A stretch of DNA of 63,244 nt, counting the filler, from Vannella sp. (lineage: Eukaryota), in assembly GCA_023345925.1 (NCBI GenBank). It is 7 parts of 7 records of this genome, joined end to end, with 100 filler letters (N's around TTAATTAATTAA, not from the genome) between each part and the next. Parts side by side here need not be neighbours in the genome. Positions count along the whole stretch, not along the records: positions 23,358 to 32,147 come from JAJQQN010000990.1; positions 32,248 to 38,189 come from JAJQQN010001369.1; 5 more parts are not named here. One strand, given 5' to 3'. Positions 23,988 to 42,606 of this stretch are shown here, in pieces (the stretch's first letter is position 1; every line of letters starts with the position of its first letter). The translations under genes were made by a program, and so were the position numbers. The notes beneath the pieces were generated by a model that was given only the letters and a program-made list of their open reading frames with translations, was not told the origin of the DNA and did no database searches.

Positions 23988-24411
23988 CCCTCCTCGAAAT
24001 GAAGGAAATGAGAAAGTTGACCAAATGTTGGATACCTCACCATGATCAACCTATACAAAGATTATTTAGAGGGGCTTCAAAGTGGAGAGAAGTCACGCGG
24101 TGGGCATTTCCCCTTGTTTGGGTCCTCTGACACCCAAAAAGAGAAAAAATGAAATCAGTCCAAAAGCTTATCCTGAAGAGATGGAGGTCATCAGGGCAAG
24201 CTACGCAAACACGAGTTCTGCCCCTTCACTCAAGGATTTCTCTTTGTCCGGCCGCCATTCTTGGACAAAATGGGTTGCCTATTAGTCCAGAGGAATGAGG
24301 CAAGACGAATCAGATTCAGGTTGAGCTCAACCTCAATGATCGATTGGTTTGCCATAATGGCAAGTTGGCTCCGGCTGGGGATTGGATGGCCGGACGGGCA
24401 GCTCATTGTTT

Positions 24412-25290
24412 ATGCGGCCTCTCTGGACCTACACACCCGACCGAACCCTCTCTGTGGACCACAGGAAGGCTCTTGAGGAGCTCTTTCAATACGACTTGCA
24501 CTTCTCAGGCAAGGAGAAGGAGGTAACGGTTCGTTCCTGGGAACACGGTGCAACCACCTCTTTCTGTCGCATGGTCTCCTTGACCGAGATCCCAGGAGGA
24601 TCCTCTTGGCGTTGGAGCCAAACCAAATCTCGCGTGCACCTCACCAACGAAGATCGCAGTTCGATCTTGGTGGCGAAGTTGGGCCCTCGGAAGAAGGGGT
24701 CTGGACCCAAATCCCCTCTTCCATCCTACAAGCTGTGGGTCTTTACGATCAAGGGAATCTGTCCAACACCCTTCAGCGTCCTCTGGTGCGAAAGGGGGTC
24801 GGAACCTCTCGAAAGACCCCCTCCCCAGCCAAGCCCACCCAACAGTCACTCAAATCCTCCTTCCAATCACTCAGAGCCACTTCCCAATCATCCACGCTCG
24901 TCCCTTAACTCCTTCCCACCCAATTCAGGCTCACCCACCAATAATCATTTCCCAATTGTGTTTATCTCAGAGTCATTTCCGCCCTCAAGCTTCCTATCAA
25001 GCCCAAGTCTCTCCAGCTCTTTGTGCCCGTCTCCCAGCTTCCCGAGCCCAAGTCTCTCCAGCTTTCTGAGTCCTGCTCTCGGCTTCCCAAGTCCAAGCCT
25101 CTCCAGCTCCCCAAGCCCAAGTCTTTCCAGCTCTCTAAGTCCTTCTTCTAGCTTGGCAAGTCTGAGTATCTTCAGCTTTCTGGACCCTCTTCCTGACTGG
25201 TCTGATGACAACTCGGTCATCATGGACCTGTTTCAAGACTTGGGGGTATTACATCATGTTCCCAAGGCTCCTCAAGATCACAGTGAATGA
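24412..25290 (+). CDS. Unknown family, paralog 1: ~130-aa conserved domain plus Pro/Ser-rich tail
   Basis: Intronless ORF; the N-terminal domain is clearly homologous to 27512-28003. Confidence 0.75.
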   Translation: MRPLWTYTPDRTLSVDHRKALEELFQYDLHFSGKEKEVTVRSWEHGATTSFCRMVSLTEIPGGSSWRWSQTKSRVHLTNEDRSSILVAKLGPRKKGSGPKSPLPSYKLWVFTIKGICPTPFSVLWCERGSEPLERPPPQPSPPNSHSNPPSNHSEPLPNHPRSSLNSFPPNSGSPTNNHFPIVFISESFPPSSFLSSPSLSSSLCPSPSFPSPSLSSFLSPALGFPSPSLSSSPSPSLSSSLSPSSSLASLSIFSFLDPLPDWSDDNSVIMDLFQDLGVLHHVPKAPQDHSE

Positions 25291-25625: not shown

Positions 25626-27344
25626 CTATTCAACGTCCACGGATATGGAAAAAGGGATGATAGGCAACCCATGGCTGCTGTAGACAATCGCTTTTGGCCA
25701 GCTGCACCAACCAAACTGGACAATTGTTATGCGGACTTCGCTTTCCAGGGCTCCCCTGGAGACAGTGAGTCGGATAACGTGGGGATGGGTGCGTTTCAAG
25801 TCATCCAGCTGGATGAAAGATCCAGTATCAAGCCGAGCCTCGAAGCCAGAGCAATACTCCTCGATGGGTCGATCAAACCGTGGATCTTTAATTGTTGGAC
25901 ATTGGGCGCTCCTCATCTCCAATCCACCCTTCCCAACCAAGTCTTTGTCAAAAATCACATCGATTAAGATGGAGTCTGTCAGATACTTCACAAGGACTCG
26001 GTCCACTGCTGGTCCATGAGATTGAATAGGAGAATGGAAAGTCTCTTCAAGCAATCGCCAGCTCATTCGCTGGCTGATGGGCTTCTTCTCTCGAGAATGT
26101 AAGTCACCGAAAGGCGAATCAGCATCGCCCTTATCATAGGCAGGAATCACTTGAACATTGGGCATTCGAGCGAGATCCATTTGAACCGCCCGAAAGTTCT
26201 CCAGGTGCGGACGTGGTACAAAAGTTGGGGCCAGTCCCACAGTAATGAAAAGAAGATCCGGTTGTCCACCAACCGATCTCCAAAACTCCAAAAGGCGGGG
26301 AAACGCACAAGCATAAAAGTTCGGTTCAAAGACATTGGACTCTCCCTGGTACCAAAGCACAGCCCTTTTCTTTAGCCTTACTACAGGATGTACCGTTCCA
26401 AACCAGGTGATACTGTCCTCCGTGGGACAACATTCGTCCTGGGGGAAATTTGAGGCGGGGCTGCCACATTCAGTCAATACCGAAGGAGGGCACCAGGTTT
26501 GAAGAGGAGAGCCGTTATTAGAGAACGATACTAACCCAATGGGAACATGCAGCTCTTCGTACATGGCCTTCCCGAAGAACCAGCAAATGGCGCTGAAATG
26601 AGTGAATGGTTCGGAGACATCTCGAATCGTCTCGTGGCTTGAAACCGTCCATGGAAGTGAAGGAGCAGTTTCCATATCAGCCAGCTCTTCCTTTGAGTCC
26701 TTTCGTCCCAAATCCATCACGCGGATGAGGGGAAAGTCGAATGTTTCACCTTCTTCGGCGTGTTTTCGCTCAGTGAAGGTCTGTGCTACTGTCAACAGCA
26801 TATTTGATTGTCCAGCACAATGATAGACATCTCCAAAGTAGACATCATTCACCTCTAGACCTTCTCCTTGGGAGTTGGTGATCAGAAGGGTGAGAGGGCC
26901 TCCTGCTGTGTGAAGTGGAAGCTCAACAGACCATCGGACTTGAGGTCTATCATAAGGTTTGACTATTTGGGAACCTCCTTGAGTGGCCAAGAAGGACATC
27001 CCCTCGTAATGAAGGACAACCTCGCAATCCAGGTCATCCGCTGCGCACCAGCCCCATACCACCGCCTGTTCGGGTGCTCGCTGTAAGACCATATGGTCGT
27101 CAAAGGCATAAGCTAACCTGAACTCCCCCTTTCGATGTAGCTCGTGGCCAAGTGGACTCAGTCCTGTGTTCGAAGAGGCGCTTTCTGATTGTGTACCGAC
27201 TTGTCGGATCTTGGGGAACCCAGCGCCCAGTGCTAGGTTTGAAGTTATCCCCATGAAGAGGAAAACCGCTACCAACGATACACCAAGCCAGGTACCCAGC
27301 AGCCCCTTTCTGCTCCCCAAAGACCGCCAGTGGAGCACTCTCAT
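25626..27344 (-). CDS. SIAE: Sialate O-acetylesterase (SASA/SGNH family)
   Basis: DHMVLQR, GDVYHCAGQSNM, FSAICWFFG, LWYQGESN, DLHSREK; N-terminal signal/anchor. Confidence 0.88.
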   Translation of the reverse strand: MRVLHWRSLGSRKGLLGTWLGVSLVAVFLFMGITSNLALGAGFPKIRQVGTQSESASSNTGLSPLGHELHRKGEFRLAYAFDDHMVLQRAPEQAVVWGWCAADDLDCEVVLHYEGMSFLATQGGSQIVKPYDRPQVRWSVELPLHTAGGPLTLLITNSQGEGLEVNDVYFGDVYHCAGQSNMLLTVAQTFTERKHAEEGETFDFPLIRVMDLGRKDSKEELADMETAPSLPWTVSSHETIRDVSEPFTHFSAICWFFGKAMYEELHVPIGLVSFSNNGSPLQTWCPPSVLTECGSPASNFPQDECCPTEDSITWFGTVHPVVRLKKRAVLWYQGESNVFEPNFYACAFPRLLEFWRSVGGQPDLLFITVGLAPTFVPRPHLENFRAVQMDLARMPNVQVIPAYDKGDADSPFGDLHSREKKPISQRMSWRLLEETFHSPIQSHGPAVDRVLVKYLTDSILIDVIFDKDLVGKGGLEMRSAQCPTIKDPRFDRPIEEYCSGFEARLDTGSFIQLDDLKRTHPHVIRLTVSRGALESEVRITIVQFGWCSWPKAIVYSSHGLPIIPFSISVDVE

Positions 27345-27511
27345 GCAAAATGAGAAAGTTTTCTAATTGCAAAAGGAATAATGGGCTGGAACTTGGCAAA
27401 AGGCCAACAGATAAAGCAGCCCGGAAGAGTCTCCCGAGAGCTCGTCTATTCCTTGAACATTTCTTGAATTTTCCTTTTTTCAGACGGAGAAAACGGTCAT
27501 TAAATTGCTTG

Positions 27512-28003
27512 ATGCGGCCTCTCTGGACCTACACCCCCGACAGGAGTCTGTCTGTTGATGTTAAGAGAGCACTGGAAGAGCTCTATCGACACAACGTGCA
27601 CTTTTCAGGAAGAAGGATAGAGGTAACGAGCCGTTGCTGGGAACAAGGTGCCTTCACCTCTTTCAGCGGTGTCATCTCTCCCATTGAGATTCCAGGAGGG
27701 CTCACTTGGCGTTGGAGCCAAGCCAAGTCCCGAGTGTATCTTACAAACGAAGATCGCAGTTCAATCTTGGTGGCAAAGTTGAGTCCTCGAAGGCGCGTTG
27801 GTGAGAGATCAGATAGTGAAGACCCTCCGCCCTCCTACAAACTATGGATCTATAAGCTACAAGGAACCAGTCCTTCGCCTTTCAGCGTACTCTGGTGCGA
27901 AAGGGGATCCGTACCTCTTGATGATTTACCAATAGGCCCCACTCCGACCCAACTCCCTTCCTCCGCCAAACCACTCATCCCAGGCTTGCCAACTTGGCTC
28001 TAA
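27512..28003 (+). CDS. Unknown family, paralog 2
   Basis: MRPLWTYTPDR...WRWSQ.KSRV.LTNEDRSSILVAKL...PSYKLW...FSVLWCERG shared with 24412-25290. Confidence 0.75.
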   Translation: MRPLWTYTPDRSLSVDVKRALEELYRHNVHFSGRRIEVTSRCWEQGAFTSFSGVISPIEIPGGLTWRWSQAKSRVYLTNEDRSSILVAKLSPRRRVGERSDSEDPPPSYKLWIYKLQGTSPSPFSVLWCERGSVPLDDLPIGPTPTQLPSSAKPLIPGLPTWL

Positions 28004-28153: not shown

Positions 28154-29904
28154 ATGCCGAAAGACGTGGTGAGTGGGAAGGTCCTGGTGGTTGCTGGAGC
28201 CTTTGTTGAGGTGTGTTGACATCGCAAAAGGCGAGGGCTGAACTCTGCTTCGATGTGGGGCGGTGTTATCGTCTGCTTACGAGGAAGGTACCTGAAGGAG
28301 GCCGGGTGAACCGCTCCGCGGCGGTCTTTTTGACTGCTGTTCTGGAGTACATCGTCAACGAGACTCTGACTGTCGCTCTCAACGAGGTTCCGACTGTCGC
28401 TCTAAACGAGGTTCCGACTGTCGCTCTAAACTTCATGAGGCGCGTTGGAAGTCAGTGGCTCATATCCGTATGATCGAAAAGAAAGAGTGATTGGGAGGGA
28501 ATACTAGGTTGTAGGTGTTTCATCTTGATTCATATTCGTTTTAGTCTTTTTCACTCATGAAGGAGCTTTTAGAAAGTGAGTGGCTCCTCCCCAACCCTCA
28601 GATGCTTAACTCGCTTTCAAGAACGTGAGTAGCTATTCACCTATCTCGCACACAATACGCTCCAACGAAAAGCTGGCCACGAGTGCTCTATTTAGTGGGT
28701 ATGCGCAGGGAATTAAACGGGAGAGGAGGAAGAGTAAAGCTGGGTCTCTCATTCACGAAAACAGGAAGTACGTAGATAAGTGGAAAGCATAGAGAGGACT
28801 AACCAACGAACCCCTTTAGAGGGTAAGATGATAGATTAAGGAGGGATGTGCGAAAACTCATGGAGTGCTTCGTCCTCTATTCTATCAAACAAGGACTAAC
28901 AGTCATTTTGGACAGACTTTTCTTGGCAATGCTTGCCATTCAGGGGAAGGCGAGTTGGTGAAGTATTTGCTTTCTTTACGGTGCATTGATGTCCAACAAC
29001 CAGTAAGTTGAAGTTGGGCACTTGCGAGTTGACTATACTGACCAATGCTTAAGTTGTTCCGGTAGTCTTTTTAGCATCGAAAAGGAGATGCTTGTTTACG
29101 CCACTCACTGCAGGGGATGTATTCAGGTGTACTCGAATGCAACTTATTTACGACAGTTTTAGCGTGTAAGTGCCTCTATCATACCATTGGAGAGTTTGAT
29201 GGTTGCGTTTGTAGTTTCCTCTTACCAAATAGCATAGTTTGTGAGTTCTTCTTCAATCTATCTGGCACGTTTTCTCACTGAATCGCATTCAGCACGTAAG
29301 TTGATGTATTTCAGAGGAAGCCTTTCTGAATAACAGAGCAAACGCATTTAGAGAGTATGGACAATCACCTTGGAGAATCTATCTAATCAGAGGGAATTCA
29401 GCAAGTGACACTCCAAGCCCGAAAATGGGCTGCAAGATGAAGAATACTGACAGAGCTTTCTCTGGGGAGTAAGAAAGCTATCAGCGGTTCAGAGAGTCGA
29501 TGGAAGGCAACTCCTCACCAAAGGCCCGTAGGGAGTAAGTGGGCAAATTTTATCTGATGAAAGGGATCCCTTACATTTTTGCTTCAGTGTGTGAGATTGG
29601 CCTTCTCTCATTGTTCAAAATGATGGGATGTGCTCCTAACTGATGGAGTCGTTTATTGCTCGAACTACATTTGTTTGAGTATAGCTTAAACGTTGGGGTT
29701 ATTAGTATGCTGGTAAAAGAGTAAGGCGAGATGGATGGGCCTCATCAAATCAATTGCCTGCAGATGGTATGTAACCTTTCCTTCCATCTCTGAGAGAAGA
29801 GAGAATTCATCACAAAGGATAAGACAGCAATTGAAATAGCTCTCAACAAAGGGCATGGCGAAGTCGTCAATTTGTTTCTGCAGGAGGAATACGCGACCCA
29901 GTGA
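28154..29904 (+). CDS. Histone H2A-like fold fused to ankyrin repeats, interrupted by two arrays of 3-nt microexons
   Basis: H2A-like ARAELCFDVGRCYRLL...RVNRSAAVFLTAVLEYI to donor 28468; ankyrin exon 28916-29002 (TFLGNACHSGEGELVKYLLSLRCIDVQQP); ankyrin exon from 29818 (DKTAIEIALNKGHGEVVNLFL); start and end uncertain. Confidence 0.75.
28357..28431 (+). repeat. In-frame 24-bp tandem repeat x3 (NE[TL/VP]TVAL)
   Basis: aacgagactctgactgtcgctctc followed by aacgaggttccgactgtcgctcta twice. Confidence 0.95.
28468..28915 (+). other. Microexon array 1A: six single-codon exons
   Basis: AG|NNN|GT at GTT 28508, AAA 28573, AAC 28622, TGG 28696, GAA 28765, AGG 28820; donors GTAGGT/GTGAGT/GTGAGT/GTATGC/GTACGT/GTAAGA. 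Confidence 0.85.
29003..29817 (+). other. Microexon array 1B: eight clear single-codon exons plus about five ambiguous or degenerate slots
   Basis: CGT 29163, TTT 29238, CAC 29293, AGA 29352, CAA 29402, GGA 29532, TGT 29588, ATG 29764, each YAG|NNN|GT. Confidence 0.82.
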
Positions 29905-30219
29905 GTTAGAAAAACGTCTGAAAGGCAAATTCCTCAGAACTGGGCCGAACTTTAAGGTTAGCTTGAGCAACAGCACTCCCCAAGTGATCGACGAGCAAGC
30001 AAACGCCTCCGGAGAAGACACCAACTGGCCACTCCGTAGATACGTCTAAATGCCATTTCCCCTTTTTGAAATGGCAAAATGAATTAATCACAAGAATTGA
30101 TTCTAACTCACTCACACATTTTTAGCTATTCATAGACCGCGGCAACGGCAAAACAGAAAACGAAAATCAATTTATCATTTGAGACTTCCTTGCCTTCCTT
30201 GCCTTCCTTGGCTGGGTCG

Positions 30220-31573
<1,354 letters not shown>

Positions 31574-31635
31574 AAAAGATGCGCTGCTAAGACCCACACG
31601 GCCGATGAGGTAATACCAAATACATTCTCTATAGC

Positions 31636-32147
31636 TTAGGGGTTTGCTTTACCTGCGATGGAACCGTATTCTTGGTTCCATTCCATCAACTGGACGAGAC
31701 TTTCTCGGGAAGTGGACGGGCGGATTTCAGAAAGGCTTCGCTGGAAATCTGAGAGGGATAATGGACGAATCTTGTGAAGTGGAGTGTGGCGAGCACTCAA
31801 TCCCAGTTCCCTAATCGGCCCCATGGAAGCATCTTGGCACAGCTGGGTGATATCACTGCCAGAGAAGCCTTCAGTACTCTCGGAGATTTTTTGAATATCT
31901 CTTCCGCAGATAGAGTGACCTTCCTGCTTGCTCACTAAAGTTCGAATGATGGCGGATCGCCCTTTTTGGTCAGGAAGATCAACAAATATTCGCTTCCCCT
32001 GCTTGGGAGATTAGTTTCATTCATATCTTACTCTAATCAAACTTACTAGTCGCCGGAGAACAGCATTGTCCAGATCCCATGGTCGGTTAGTGGCCGCTAA
32101 TACAATTAAACTGTCTGATTGGGAGCTGGTGACCCCGTCCATTTGGA
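31636..32147 (-). CDS. Spastin/fidgetin-like AAA ATPase, C-terminal fragment
   Basis: [23 protein letters not shown], Vps4_C-like WNQEYGS. Confidence 0.85.
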
Positions 32148-32247
32148 NNNNNNNNNNNNNNNNNNNNNNNNNNNNNNNNNNNNNNNNNNNNTTAATTAAT
32201 TAANNNNNNNNNNNNNNNNNNNNNNNNNNNNNNNNNNNNNNNNNNNN
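32148..32247. other. Artificial contig linker
   Basis: N44-TTAATTAATTAA-N44. Confidence 0.98.
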
Positions 32248-35200
32248 GAATCCCCCGGCCAACCATTCCCAAGCTGTAAAGGAGTTCCGGGACATTGATA
32301 CCATCAAAATCGCTGTCTAGGGTCTGATAGATACTTTCCCAGTGCTCTTGAGCTGTTCTCTGCGACTGGGAACTGCGGGATGGAGCTGCCATTGGAGTTG
32401 GATCATAAATAGCGAGAGCGGGGTGCGATTTCTTGAGCTTATCGAACTCAATTAAGATGTTTGACGAGGAAACGCTACTTTCTGCACGCTCTACTCGTCG
32501 TAGGGCATCAGCACCGTGCTTCATATCCTCAGTTAAAGTCAACCAAATGGCTTTCTTGTCCACTCTCCGGCTGCTTTGTGCAAGGAGGATCTTATCTTCC
32601 AAGCTGTTCAATTGAGTTTCCAATTGGCTGACGGAACCACGTATTTGAGTGATTAAGGCTGCTTTCTCTTTGGGCGCGAGGGCATTCAGATTCACTATTG
32701 GCCCTATTAAGGTCTCTTTTGTGGCACTGAGGATTCCCCTGGCCAGAGTGAGAGAAGGAGACACGTCTCTTTGAGCGATAGCCGAAGCTTTAAGCTCTGG
32801 AATCAATCTCTGAAGGGTGTGGAGTAAGAAAGGGGCGTCTTGAGGAGTGAAGGGCCGGGGAAGGAGTTTCGCACTTCCAAACCAAGTCAAGTGAATCTCT
32901 TGTGGAGGAATCCCTCGATAGAAGATGCCAACAGCTTCCTTCTCCATTGGGATTGTGCATTGGCATCGGGGCGGGTATCCAAGAGCAGGCATGAACCCAT
33001 TGAAAGGCGTGTCGACTCCCACAGAAAGTGGAATTCCGGATTGCGTTTGCCTCAAGAGTCGCTTCAGATCCTTCCCAAGATCAACGAATGTGGCTGGTAA
33101 TTGAGCCGGCGAAGTGATTTGGTAGTTACTTGGGAAGTAGGCAGACTGGAGAGTGTCCGTAGCAAACTTGAGCTGCATTGCGCCTTCCAAATCCCCGAGG
33201 CCAAGCTGGATGATGCTCATATAACAGTTCAGGTGGGATGCCCCGATGACCAACATACTCTCTCTTGCTGACTTGATGTATGCTTCTGAGTCATTCTCAG
33301 TGTCTTCAGAGACTGTCACCAGAACGAAGAGGGACATCAGTGGCCCTTCATCTCTGACTGAGTCTGCCTTCGAGGCCATCTTCTGACTGCAATTCAACGC
33401 AATATCAACGGCTGCAGCATGTCCTCCTAAAATGTCTATCCTATCGCTGGGAGGAGCTTTTGCAAGCTCTGGAGAGAGGAAAAAGCTCGAATTGGTTATC
33501 GCTTGCTTCTCGATTGACTTTCCGATGAAGATAACATTGGCCTTATCAGGGCTAATCATGTCATATACATCCTTACATGCAGGGAACAAGTAACGCTCCA
33601 GATGCTTGCTGGTAAGTGACTTATGGCGAGGAAGAAGAAAGATCAATTGAGTTTGAACTGGCGGGGAGGGATGGAATCCAATGGTCCTTTCAACATCTTG
33701 CTGGTCCATCTTAATGAGAAAATCATCCTTGCTACCAGGGACATGAGTAAAGTAGAAAATTGGCGGTTCCTTCGCCATTGCAATGACGGGATCTGGTTTC
33801 TTCCCACTTTTGGGGTGCTTGGGCGCCTTGGTGGGTTTGATGGGGGTGATCTCCTTCTGCCTCTCTGAAGCTCGATGTTGTGTCTCGTTGCGATCGCCTT
33901 GGTTACCGATTGTCACGAGTAGGACGGGAAGAAGTTGCTCTTTGTCGAAGAGAACATACTCGAGGCGGTCAGGAGATATATGAGAGTCATACCCCTCTGT
34001 CTTATTCCCATACTTGTAGTGAACGTGGTCCTCCTTGTCAATGTAGAAGGGAGATTCACACTGGAACACTCTTCCCATTCCCACCAGTGACACTATTACT
34101 TGCTGGATTCCTCCCAAACACATGCGGTAGGAGTAGTCCGTCGCCTTTTTGATGTTTGGAGAGACATAGATGCCCTTGCCATACAGAGAGCCGTTCGTGA
34201 CATCAATAAAAGTGCCTTCTTTGGTGAATTCACCTGCTGAGAGAAGGCCGTGGTCCACTGGAACCACGTCAGATGCTGAACATAAGAGCATAAAGAGCAT
34301 TCCACTCACCTATGCTCTCGATAGTCTGACGACTGGCTCCATGATAGCCGTAGGTGATGGCCTGGATGGGAGTTTTGAGTTGATTGAGCTGTTCCATGTG
34401 CTTAGAGAAGGCCAAAAGATGCTCCGGACTCATGATATTCTCTACAGACAGTACTTTGCCTCGTACAGAGGCCAGGTCACGATCTACCTCTCGACAGAGG
34501 CCCTGTTGAACTGCTTTGAGGGACAAAGAAGAGAGTGGAAGCCCACTCCGCTGGAGCTGGAGATCACCAAGGCCTCTTAAAGGAGGCATGAAGGGGATTT
34601 GAAGCTCTTCCGCTGATTTGGAGACCGCTTCATCGACCTTTTGTTCGAGGAATGCGTCAAGGTACCGTTGAGTGTAAAGGAAAGCGTCCAGAAGGCTTGA
34701 ATCGATGCATCTCTCATGTTTCAGGAGAAGGAGAGCTTCGATCGTGTCCTTCTGTGCGAGAGAGAGGCCTTCTGACTGCAAAACCTGAACCTGAATCTTC
34801 CCGCTTGAAGGATAAGCAGCTGGTACTGTCAATGCTAACGTCACTTGACAAGAGAAGGCTGCTTGGTGATGTTTCTGTTCTGATGTCACAGTTCCCTCCA
34901 CGCAGAAGGGAGCACCTGTGGTCGTGGTCACCACTAAAGGGTCCACTTCGAAGCCAAAGCTCCGAACGACGTCTAACTCTTCCTCAAGAGTCTCGCAGTC
35001 GCTCATTCCATCCTCTCGGGGGGCTTCCCAAGCCTGAGCTACGCGCAGGAGCAACTCCCCATGAGGAGGGAGCACCAGTTTTGTGCGTTCAAGGTAAGAA
35101 GTGACTTTGGCGAGGCTCTGATAGTCCACAAACTGAACTGTGGACGGAGTAGCGAGTAGTGCAGCCTTTGCATCAGAGGAGAGCACCTGCTGGTGATAAA

Positions 35201-35357
35201 GAGCAACGGAAGGCAACATTGCTTCCAACACGTCCACTGGAACGCATTTGGCCAGCTGTCCCACCGCCCTCCGCACTAAGCGTGCCTGATGTGCAGGCTC
35301 AAGATCTTCCACACCGCTGGTCCCCTCGAAAACGTTCTCTGCAACGAAACGGGACAT
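32248..35357 (-). CDS. Large multidomain protein: RWD-like + PARP/ART catalytic domain + vWA-like/helical region; 3' truncated
   Basis: TVPAAYPSS RWD-like motif; YGYHG, YGKGIYVSP, YS, EYVLF (H-Y-E triad); one intron near 34275-34308; start uncertain. Confidence 0.7.
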
Positions 35358-35513
35358 AAAAAAGAAGCCAGGAAAAAACTGGGAATGGACTTGGCGTCCA
35401 CTCCTCTTTTCCTTATTATGGGAGCAGGAACATATTCTATTCCCGTGAACATTCTGTTCGATCGTGATACGGAGAGGTTTAGTAGGGCGCTGCATCCGTT
35501 ATATACACTCCTC

Positions 35514-37993
35514 TTATTGGAGATTGCACTTCTCTTTGTGCTTCTTCTTGCTAGTGGAGATTTCCTTGATTTGGGGGTCAGCAATTGGAGTTGAGATGCT
35601 CTCGAGAATCTCGGTGGCCATCACGCTAAAGAGCTCCTTGACATTGAACTCGGTCTTGGCGGAGGTTTCCAAGAGGGAAATGTTAAGCCCATCAGCGAAT
35701 TGCTTTGCAGTGTCGAAGTCGATAACCTTTAAAGTGGCCGAATCACACTTGTTGCCAACCAGGAACCTCTTGGTTCTATCAAGAGCGCATTGATCAGCGA
35801 GAGCCAGCCATCGATCCAGATTTGCAAAGGAATTGGGATTTGTAACATCGTACATGATGATGACTCCAAGAATTCCTACGAATCCATGACGACCATTGGC
35901 AAGGCGCAACGTCTCATCAATTTCGAGCTTAACAGACTTACCTCCAACCACGATCGTCTTGTTGGCCCCGCCCGAACCGAACAAATCATCAGGGAGAGGC
36001 TGACCCTCTGTGAAGGTTTCGTCCACAAACCGGCGAATCAAGGAGGTCTTGCCCGATCCACTGTCTCCAATAACCTTCAGCTTGAAGAGGTGATCGTACT
36101 TGGGCGGAGGGATGAAGCGAGGTCTTCCACCCGCCTTCTTCAGACCCTCCTTGATTTCGGGAATTGTGCTCTTCATCTCCCATGGCGACTTTGTACCGAT
36201 CTCATTAGACCATCCCTTTGGAGCAATGTAAAAACTTACTACCTGAACGAATCCTATTGGTAACTTGCTCTCGGAAGTCTCCAATTGCCACTTACCTCCT
36301 GCTAAAGTGATAAGGCAAGCGCTTGGGGATGGCCGATGGTGCTCACATTCTATTAGGCGGTGCATCAGATTCTAGTCTCCAAATGAAGGGACTGAATTGA
36401 ATCAAATCAATTACTTACGGTCTGAAAGTCCGCCTTAGGTAAGGTTGCATCCATTCCCTGACTAACTAGCTTACGGTCTAAAGGAGAATGGTACTGAGCA
36501 AGTCACCTCGATGAGATCTTTACTTACATACTAATTCCCGGTCATCAATGGGTCTTAATGCTTACGAAATAGATCTTTACCCACCCTCTGTGTATGGTCA
36601 ATTAGAGATCCCCTCCAGCTATTTACTCACAGCCTAGAAGAGAAAATAATAAGATAATGGTCATCCCTTTCGAGATCAGCCCTTCTTACAGTCTAAAAAT
36701 CGAAATTTGGTGAAAACTACTCTTCCTCCTCTTCAGATTACTTACAGCCTAGATAGAACAACCTATGAGTCTACTTTACGTCTCCATTTAAGGTATCGCT
36801 AACATGCTGAATGAGAGCCTTTGATGAGTATCAAATCCACTCAAACTTGCTCATCAACTCACACACTAATGAAGAGAATCATCGTTAGTAAAGGGGGAGA
36901 GCATTCTTAGAGCTCACTCCTTCATGAACGTTGATAGCACGACGAGAAAGCAAGTATTCAACGAATTCAGTTTTTCCATAAGCAGTTGCCAACCCAAGGT
37001 AGGTCTGGGAAGGTTATTCCAGCAGTTGATTGGGAAAACGACTTACCCACTGTTGACATTTTGTTGGCATGTTGCATCCTCTTTCTTTGAATCGAAAAAG
37101 CTTACATGCTGAAGAGGACGATGAGTAAATGTTGCCTCCATCTGTTAAAGGCGCTTGAAACTCTTACTTTCTTCTCAAAACCGGCAATTATTGTTTACTT
37201 TTCAAATGAAGTGGCCACTTACGGACTAAACCCTCAACCATAAGCAATCGCCGTGACTCTTCCATGGTTAATCACTCACACTCTTGGGAAACCGGGTGAG
37301 GATCTATTTTAAGATAATAAAAGGATCCAGGAAACTTTCTCTTCCTTTCCTATTCAAGAGAAAGTGCCTTCGGACTCACATTCTAGAATGGTTTCTGTGA
37401 AAATCCAATTCTGAGTCTCTTCCTCAAAGTCACTCACGCCATACTAACGTTTGTCCCTTTGAAGTGAGATTATGATTCAGTCACAGGCTGAGAGAGACTT
37501 TCTACTAACAGTCTAAAGGGTGTGAGTGAGGATCACATCTTCTCCTCATCAGAGATGGTCCAAAGTCCCTTACAAACTGAAGTTGAGACCTTTTGGTGAG
37601 ATTTACAGCGTTCTAATGAAAGATACAATATCACTTCCACATACCTCCTGTAGCTGCCTAGTGAGCTCAAAGAAGGTCTAAATAGACGTTCACCTACTTC
37701 CTAAGGCCATGGTCAGACATGTCCGCCCTAAGCCGTGAGCCTCGACCCTTGATCATAACTAGGTACAGACACTTACATGCTAAGCGAGCAGCTATGGTGT
37801 GAGTCCCTTCGAACGAGAGTTTCCTTCGCCCCACCCACGTACTAGAAGAGATCCCCGCCATCAGCACTGCTCCATTCTCTTCGACTGAAGAGAGGATACC
37901 CACTTCGTTGAGCTTCCTCGGATCCTCGTCCAAGATAGCCACCAGCACAGGCAGCTCCCAACCAGTCCCAGCGTCCCAAACTACTTCGGTCAT
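35514..37993 (-). CDS. Ankyrin-repeat protein with two arrays of 3-nt microexons, fused to a degenerate Rab1-like GTPase with a CaaX box
   Basis: Exon 37904-37993 MTEVVWDAGTGWELPVLVAILDEDPRKLNE; exon 36918-37004 TYLGLATAYGKTEFVEYLLSRRAINVHEG; final exon 35514-36188 SPWEMK..LKKAGG then YDHLFKL..GDSGSGKT, NKCD, ETSAK, CNLQ; all junctions phase 0. Confidence 0.85.
36189..36917 (-). other. Microexon array 2B: twelve single-codon exons
   Basis: In transcript order (lowest coordinate given): TGT 36863, CAT 36804, GCT 36746, ACT 36690, GCT 36631, AGG 36585, TAT 36528, ACC 36475, ACC 36419, AAT 36347, (CAG)GAG 36296, GTA 36240; introns 43-69 nt. Confidence 0.9.
37005..37903 (-). other. Microexon array 2A: thirteen microexons (twelve 3-nt, one 6-nt)
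   Basis: In transcript order: TAC 37839, CAT 37777, GAA 37698, GAG 37645, TTT 37574, ACT 37510, TATGGC 37438, AAT 37380, AGT 37280, TCC 37223, AAA 37168, CAT 37106, TGG 37047; introns 42-97 nt. Confidence 0.9.
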
Positions 37994-41612: not shown

Positions 41613-41809
41613 AACCCCGTTCTGCATGTGTGCCCGTCTTCCCCCATCGTCACGGCCTTCGTCGTAACTGATAAACATCGCTATGAGCTGTTCACCCGTC
41701 GGGAACCTCCGGAAAAGAGAACAAGGAGAGTTTAGTTCAACCCAGAGGATGACAGAAACGAGGGAATCTGGATCTGCTGTACAAAGGAGGGAAAGAGGGG
41801 CCGCAAGTC

Positions 41810-42606
41810 TCACATGACCAGGCACTTCTTCCTCTTCTTAGGGGCGAAGAGAACAGCCTTAACTGCCTCATCGAAGACTGTTTTCAAGTTCTCTCCAGTC
41901 TTGGCGGAGCACTCCAAGTACTTGATCGCCTTAATTTTCTTAGCGAGTTCGTTACCCTACAGAAGAGCAGAAAGGGTCAGCTAACTTGCTTGTACTTCCA
42001 CACACCATGCAAAAATGCATCAGAAGGAGTGAGGAGGCGACTCACCTGGTCAGCAGGGATGGGTTGTTGCCCCAAGCTCTTGAGCTTGTCAAGAGTTCCT
42101 GAATCACCTCTCAAATCCAGTTTGGTGCCGACAAGGATCTGTGGAACCTCAGGACAGAAGTGGATGACTTCAGGGTACCACTTGCTGGTGACGTTTTCGA
42201 ACGACACGGGGTTCGTCACCGAGAAACAGACGAGGAAGACGTTGGCGTTCGCGTAACTGAGAGGACGAAGGCGATCATACTCTTCTTGCCCTATTAATGC
42301 AGTTAGATTGTGTTCCCTTACCCTCCCGAGGACAGAAAAAAAGAAGGCTCACCAGCTGTGTCCCAAAGACCCAACTCGATGGTCTGTTCTCCTGCTGTGA
42401 GATTGACAACATAGTTATCAAACACTGTGGGAATGTAGTCCTCAGGGAACCGGTTGTTGGCGTAGCTGATAAGCAGGCCTGAACAATACCGCGTTAGTGG
42501 AGGGACATCGAGGACCTCATCGCATCTACGCGAGACAAGACCACCTACAGGTTTTTCCGACAGCACCATCACCAATAACCACAAGTTTGATTCCCTTTGA
42601 GGTCAT
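41810..42606 (-). CDS. racC: Rac/Rho GTPase, closest in pattern to Dictyostelium RacC
   Basis: [51 protein letters not shown], CaaX CLVM. Confidence 0.88.

Follow-up and report, generated by a model that had tools for sequence, protein, structure and literature searches.

Two predicted ankyrin genes and their tiny exons

The window, the whole stretch of DNA analysed here, comprises 63,244 nucleotides (nt) of the Vannella sp. assembly GCA_023345925.1 and consists of seven parts joined end to end. Its DNA is eukaryotic, gene-dense and about 50% G+C, with short introns. It holds two predicted genes, A (28154-29904, + strand) and B (37993-35514, - strand), in each of which an 87-nt exon with ankyrin-repeat character lies between two arrays of tiny exons. 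Together, the four arrays flanking the 87-nt exons contain 38 predicted exons of 3 nt, one of 6 nt and one probable exon of 15 nt, all read from DNA only. Gene A runs from a 5-codon exon and a 79-codon H2A-like exon through six tiny exons, the ankyrin exon and nine further tiny exons to a 26-codon ankyrin-like exon. Gene B opens with a first exon of 30 codons; its ankyrin exon is preceded by 13 tiny exons and followed by 12, and a last exon of 224 codons closes the gene.

Gene A
28154..28168 (+): predicted first exon, 5 codons, with ATG, a GTGAGT donor, a 62-nt intron and an open frame
28231..28467 (+): truncated H2A-like exon, 79 amino acids (aa); its best phmmer match in PDB is H2A.Z, at E 2.3e-8
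28508..28822 (+): array A1, six 3-nt exons at 28508, 28573, 28622, 28696, 28765 and 28820 (V K N W E R), with AG/GT flanks and introns of 40-93 nt
28916..29002 (+): ankyrin exon, 87 nt, phase 0-0, from Pfam and a PDB profile search
29066..29116 (+): two putative decayed slots within a 160-nt intron, identified by eye, each an acceptor and triplet lacking GT, at 29066 and 29114
29163..29766 (+): array A2, 3-nt exons at 29163, 29238, 29293, 29352, 29402, 29532, 29588 and 29764 (R F H R Q G C M) plus the probable 15-nt exon 29706-29720, from pattern, splice matrix and reading
29466 (+): decayed slot of A2, identified by eye, with a good donor and GG where AG is expected
29824..29904 (+): last exon, 26 aa of ankyrin-like repeat followed by a stop; helix pattern by eye, frame open in the model

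Gene B
37904..37993 (-): first exon, 30 aa, with ATG and a GTGGGT donor; a predicted N-terminal cap with no Pfam match
37047..37841 (-): array B1, 13 exons at 37841, 37779, 37700, 37647, 37576, 37512, 37443 (6 nt), 37382, 37282, 37225, 37170, 37108 and 37049 (Y H E E F T YG N S S K H W), from pattern and splice matrix
36918..37004 (-): ankyrin exon, 87 nt, phase 0-0, from Pfam and a PDB profile search
36240..36865 (-): array B2, twelve 3-nt exons at 36865, 36806, 36748, 36692, 36633, 36587, 36530, 36477, 36421, 36349, 36298 and 36242 (C H A T A R Y T T N E V), from pattern and splice matrix
35514..36188 (-): last exon, 224 aa, with a predicted C-terminal cap, a Rab-like domain lacking DxxG, a basic tail and a CaaX-type end; Pfam Ras E 3.8e-28, alignment and motif counts

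Both gene models are open, with 158 aa for A and 309 aa for B. The array spans carry 7-22 stops in every frame, so that splicing them out is required for reading either gene. Gene B would contain 27 introns in 309 codons; its neighbour genes run for as many as 915 codons without an intron. The initial annotation had spoken of arrays of 6-13 codon-sized exons, which agrees with the counts of 6, 9 (plus 3-4 decayed slots), 13 and 12, save that one exon is of 6 nt and one probably of 15 nt. Two further candidates in array B1 were rejected as exons, namely CCT at 37487, a Pro codon whose flanking introns would be too short, and a 6-nt site at 37612. Tandem acceptors (TAG CAG GAG) or triplets starting with GT occur at the slots 36242-36304 (-), 37645-37653 (-) and 28508 (+), and such slots could add variants of 6 nt, 9 nt or zero length.

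The description of the 87-nt exons proved accurate: both have 29 codons in phase 0-0, are preceded by CAG and followed by GT, translate as claimed and share 14 of 29 residues (46 of 87 nt). Pfam Ank_3 matches are weak and under the cut-off (E 0.015 for 28916-29002, 0.12 for 36918-37004), and a profile of the two exons retrieves ankyrins as well as DARPins (ankyrin repeat proteins made by design) from PDB with a best E of 2.6e-6. Judged by these profiles, the exons are real ankyrin repeats, helix-turn-helix units of about 33 residues. An earlier estimate that some four residues are missing from each holds in that a gap exists; its size is 4 or 5 depending on the alignment. Set on the 33-residue period of a designed PDB protein, the exon begins two residues ahead of the first helix leucine and leaves 4 residues, while the Pfam alignment places 27 residues on 26 positions and leaves 5 to the next repeat. 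What is lacking is the turn from one repeat to the next, which belongs to the binding face varied in DARPin libraries. The placement of the tiny exons in this hairpin loop stands, at the DNA level, as a position at the repeat joint, except that array A1 has the histone-like exon on one side and the first repeat on the other, not a repeat on both sides.

The tblastn search with the 29-aa exon that the initial annotation had proposed was run inside the window and returned just the two known exons. Among longer proteins, none of 74 candidates contained the ankyrin exon, and the viral contigs yielded one gene only, an ordinary intron-free ankyrin.

Splice signals and encoded residues

Tiny exons are far more frequent in the arrays than chance allows. 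Strict AG-NNN-GT sites number 7 in gene A and 18 in gene B, whereas 500 simulations gave 0.20 and 0.21, with at most 3 and 2. A splice matrix, trained to avoid circularity on ordinary introns alone (22 introns of five conserved genes, chosen by eye and without RNA check), recovers 4 (A) and 16 (B) three-base exons across the 3 kb that the arrays occupy, where chance would give 0.25 per 3 kb. At other lengths it finds none at 0-2 and 4-7 nt and at most 2 at 8-18 nt; the antisense strand gives 0-1. Every one of the 40 tiny exons has a length divisible by three, and none is 1, 2, 4 or 5 nt long. Branch-point motifs occur in 25 of 44 array introns versus 10.7 after shuffling (18 of 22 in ordinary-intron controls). 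Median intron length is 55.5 in the arrays and 50.5 in ordinary introns, AG near the acceptor is rarer in array introns (29 vs 44.5), and their 5' part is richer in purines.

Triplets with splice-like flanks might also be chance motifs, part of a DNA repeat, or landing pads for the stepwise removal of one long intron. The same exon pattern does yield false matches in repeats: three control scans of viral contigs returned 44 loci, whose chains were all tandem repeats or short chance runs, mostly in open frames. In the arrays, however, Tandem Repeats Finder detected no tandem repeat, and adjacent introns resemble each other no more than distant ones do (mean similarity z 0.40 adjacent, 0.41 same-gene and 0.44 cross-gene, 946 pairs). 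Zero-length AG/GT sites number 0 and the triplets encode 16 different residues, which makes it very improbable that they are not exons. We infer that the exons reach mRNA. Among the viral false matches, L010:3000-3340 on a phage-like contig is a leucine-rich repeat gene with repeats of 23 residues (69-nt units) that differ from copy to copy at their variable positions; comparable false matches occur in L001, L002, L008 and L011.

All 38 triplets are sense codons, with 0 stops where 2.35 would be expected (P 0.09). The initial annotation had noted a wealth of H, Y, W, F and R, and the count bears this out at 14 of 38 versus 7.6 expected (P 0.013, the group having been picked after the fact). 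The remarked absence of Pro and Leu is likewise real (0 of 38 against 5.0 expected, P 0.005, again for a group selected after seeing the data), but the expectation falls to 2.4 when position-specific base use is considered. Pro, Leu and Ile together are found in 0 of 38 against 7.3 expected, and neither Ile nor Asp occurs. As a sign of translation, the length signal is stronger than the residue composition.

Each loop of gene B is offered 12-14 residues, while 4-5 are needed to complete a standard repeat, which makes variable skipping likely. We therefore consider it fairly probable that the tiny exons are skipped variably, a different subset in each transcript. An exon of 3 nt is too small for the splicing complexes of both flanking introns simultaneously, so the introns would be removed in turn, and weak donors on the exon side would permit single exons to drop out. 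Such weakness is visible in the last exon base, which is G in 7 of 39 tiny exons versus 14 of 22 ordinary donors (P 0.0006). Subsets of 4-6 residues would give 1669 distinct peptides for B1, 1293 for B2, 22 for A1 and 157 for A2, and the combinations of B1 with B2 amount to about two million pairs.

Several points weigh against variable skipping. The intron side of the donors is better matched in the arrays than in ordinary introns (5.05/6 vs 4.73/6), a comparison biased by a pattern search that favoured strong donors. Multiples of three would also be expected if an intron and a codon were duplicated together, without any skipping. Standard ankyrin hairpins use Asp and Gly, and in the arrays Asp is absent and Gly rare. 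The arrays are known from one genome only, and constitutive tiny exons of the type seen in the Drosophila gene sowah do exist.

If all exons were nearly always included, the loops would be long and fixed at 12-14 residues, and diversity would arise only between gene copies or strains through gain, loss and mutation of slots. The gene sowah (FBgn0036302) is an ankyrin-repeat gene. It contains five tiny exons, four of which (3, 3, 6 and 12 nt) are listed as constitutive in Tables S4 and S5 of PMC8042270, and this lends more weight to fixed loops. LoopDARPins, as far as the available part of PMC6977956 describes them, tolerate long loops in place of the beta-turn. The donors of gene B are strong on the intron side, and only one of its 27 introns is long. 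On the other hand, sowah shares with genes A and B 3-nt exons in an ankyrin-repeat gene but has 5 tiny exons compared with the 38 of 3 nt described here, whose arrays go far beyond what a loop needs, and its partners differ. Faithful inclusion of 25 consecutive exons would be needed despite weak exon-side donors, and there would be no reason to retain 27 introns in a compact genome. Fixed long loops thus seem to us rather unlikely, and we continue with variable skipping.

Partner domains and genomic surroundings

In gene A, the match of the H2A-like exon to H2A.Z is confined to residues 1-58, the alignments stopping at exon residue 51-59. The exon has no Pfam match and lacks a complete histone fold, since the third helix and the docking region are outside the match. 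A 24-nt unit present three times (28357-28431, +) stands in place of the end of the histone fold. Read unspliced, the exon meets a stop one codon later; its junction with array A1 is weakly indicated by one weak donor, GTATGA at 28468. The long introns of gene A (160, 127 and 115 nt) carry half-sites, and its frame is intact although slots have decayed, so slot loss is harmless to the frame. The last exon of gene A has no Pfam match on its own.

The last exon of gene B combines a Ras-family domain with the predicted cap. In a fold model its mean predicted local distance difference test (pLDDT) score is 62.5, with the cap region below 55 and a helix at residues 10-18 (low confidence). Seven metagenome-assembly clusters (P0001, P0002, P0077, P0004, P0093, P0136 and P0185), chosen for a matching N-terminal cap, match it over the full length at 43-52% identity. 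Together with gene B they form one clade among 40 rows of a quick tree (Shimodaira-Hasegawa-like approximate likelihood ratio test, 99), which nests among Rab1-like rows with P0193 and P0219 as sister rows. All relatives start within about 12 residues of the acceptor in the window. Two relatives extend past it: directly ahead of the x-P-W start, P0002 has Gln and P0229 has Lys, in agreement with the read-through of the window; codons for both can end in AG, which would fit a shared intron at that point.

The family has kept the P-loop in 7 of 8 members and G4, G5 and a basic tail with CxxQ in 8 of 8. DxxG (G3) is found in none of the eight compared with all three ordinary Rab1 rows, one of which was missed by the motif search and is visible in the alignment. 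Within-family identity is 0.24 in switch I and 0.22 in switch II versus 0.60, 0.50 and 0.55 in other blocks. The Rab-like domain likely no longer switches normally. CxxQ is a prenylation signal, and the basic tail and CaaX end would hold the product of gene B on the inner membrane face. Rab1A is a target of bacterial effectors, which modify its residues S79 and Y80 and keep its partners from acting on it (PMC10418220), so that a bait role is a possible reading. The variability is explained equally well if selection has been relaxed on a domain that has ceased to switch.

Beyond the window, a scan of metagenome contigs with the last exon gave 2 loci out of 357 candidates, both ordinary Rab1, and viral and prokaryote contigs gave none. 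Of the matches among longer last-exon relatives, 0 of 53 had ankyrin repeats ahead of the Rab-like domain; P0053 shows the order Rab-ubiquitin-ankyrin. Genes of this kind will be missed by gene finders, and the relatives found are last-exon fragments only. Neither model contains a NACHT domain, the sole match being the P-loop of the Rab-like domain (E 0.11, under the cut-off), and Pfam detects no nucleotide-binding leucine-rich-repeat receptor (NLR) core in either.

The initial annotation had seen in these genes a shuffled module joined to different partners. The partners do differ, one being H2A-like (E 2e-8, PDB) and the other of the Ras family (E 4e-28), but the idea of shuffling is drawn from two genes only, whose arrays have neither codon order nor intron homology in common and of which one is joined to its partner by the weak donor mentioned above.

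The state of the partners also bears on whether the design once worked and its copies are now degrading, gene A above all, with skipping as noise and products that do little. In gene A, 3-4 slots have lost AG or GT, the histone fold is truncated and a 24-nt unit has recently been triplicated; the Rab-like domain of gene B lacks DxxG. However, both models are open with 38 of 38 codons sense, and the conservation of G4, G5 and the CxxQ end in 8 of 8 members, seven of them relatives at 43-52% identity to gene B, points to selection. Decay is accordingly improbable in our judgement, and variable skipping remains the reading that we carry forward.

The surroundings of the two genes are affected by the six joins of the window (16141, 23258, 32148, 38190, 52227 and 56219), each of 44 N, a 12-base all-frame stop linker and another 44 N; they cut several genes. 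Between genes A and B lies a long gene or gene pair (31636-35498, -) that matches PARP weakly (E 7e-4), has an AAA end of Vps4/spastin type and is interrupted at 32148-32247; a fusion of ADP-ribosyltransferase-like and AAA parts would be unusual. On one side of this join the AAA fragment lacks the first 90 profile positions and an open frame enters from the other, which is consistent with linkage of genes A and B across 32148-32247, though the other end has no match to an AAA protein. Two paralogous frames, 24358-25290 (+) and 27257-28003 (+), share 64% identity over 138 aa, have Ser/Pro low-complexity tails and no Pfam match, and possibly represent an unnamed DNA-binding domain. A GC-AG intron occurs at 31153 (+) in a sugar-nucleotide dehydratase gene, and a GC donor may also be present at 29709 in array A2. 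For the Rac gene near 41800-42600 a likeness to Dictyostelium RacC is presumed, which is why the host is read as a likely amoebozoan; none of 10 proteins from the window was present in the collection searched.

Proposed function and comparison with known systems

Under variable skipping, genes A and B would encode small ankyrin-repeat binders whose hairpin loops are assembled codon by codon from 6-13 frame-preserving tiny exons each. As each transcript would retain a different subset, one gene could present many antibody-like binding surfaces. Loops of about 4-6 residues would be compatible with the standard fold and longer ones would act like engineered long loops. The likely use would be to recognise foreign proteins within the cell, a role also put forward for the truffle NACHT-ankyrin (nank) genes. 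More tentatively, the genes could belong to a natural DARPin library of a protist, a cap-repeat-cap family with millions of loops in which copies of host proteins (a membrane-anchored Rab1 mimic whose switches are hypervariable, a piece of H2A) serve as baits or targeting parts; such an anticipatory immune repertoire in an amoeba, independent of truffle nank, is a speculation that we hold to be doubtful.

If the exons are indeed mixed, a microbe far from truffles would have reached the same solution of one-codon splicing at the ankyrin binding face. Gene B would then be a compact case (2.5 kb, two loops) bearing on diversified recognition repertoires in protists, a question of comparative immunology, and would reveal how the spliceosome copes with 25 exons of three bases set among introns of 50 nt. 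Both switches of the Rab-like partner vary across the eight family members, and this suggests a connection with small GTPases modified by intracellular bacteria, as described in part for Rab1A (PMC10418220).

The closest known system is that of truffles. A literature search, with most subscription papers outside its reach, turned up no published report of such arrays in protists. The nank genes of Tuber melanosporum were reportedly described by Iotti et al. 2012. As far as the available parts of the sources go, tens of alternatively spliced 3-bp exons diversify their C-terminal recognition domain (PMC4986451, PMC3689799, PMC13449251, PMC9815663), and a hairpin placement of the truffle exons may already be in print. 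Ankyrin repeats and tens of 3-bp exons are common to nank and to genes A and B, where 38 are predicted. In contrast, genes A and B lack NACHT, have one internal repeat between caps, carry a Rab-like plus CaaX or an H2A-like partner and likely come from a non-fungal host. Lacking NACHT, they would work like nank without being members of it.

In DARPin libraries each repeat is varied at six positions, of which some are on the helix and others on the beta-turn face; these libraries share with the predicted proteins the cap-repeat-cap layout, the variable beta-turn face and, for LoopDARPins, tolerance of a long loop (PMC6977956, in part). They are engineered, of fixed length and also varied at helix positions, whereas here length and content would vary by splicing. 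With Rab1-type GTPases, the family of gene B has in common the Ras-family fold and the conserved P-loop, G4 and G5; it differs in the missing DxxG, the diverged switches, CxxQ instead of CC and its position behind an ankyrin cap. Dscam1, the micro-exon genes of schistosomes and the shuffling of leucine-rich and tetratricopeptide repeat exons in brown algae also diversify recognition surfaces at the exon level, with domains, repeats or longer exons as units and not single codons. Plant NLRs with integrated decoys fuse a copy of a pathogen target to a sensor; genes A and B differ by having no NLR core. What is new here is the combination of a likely non-fungal host, a minimal cap-repeat-cap layout, old and diverged arrays, and a Rab-like partner with variable switches.

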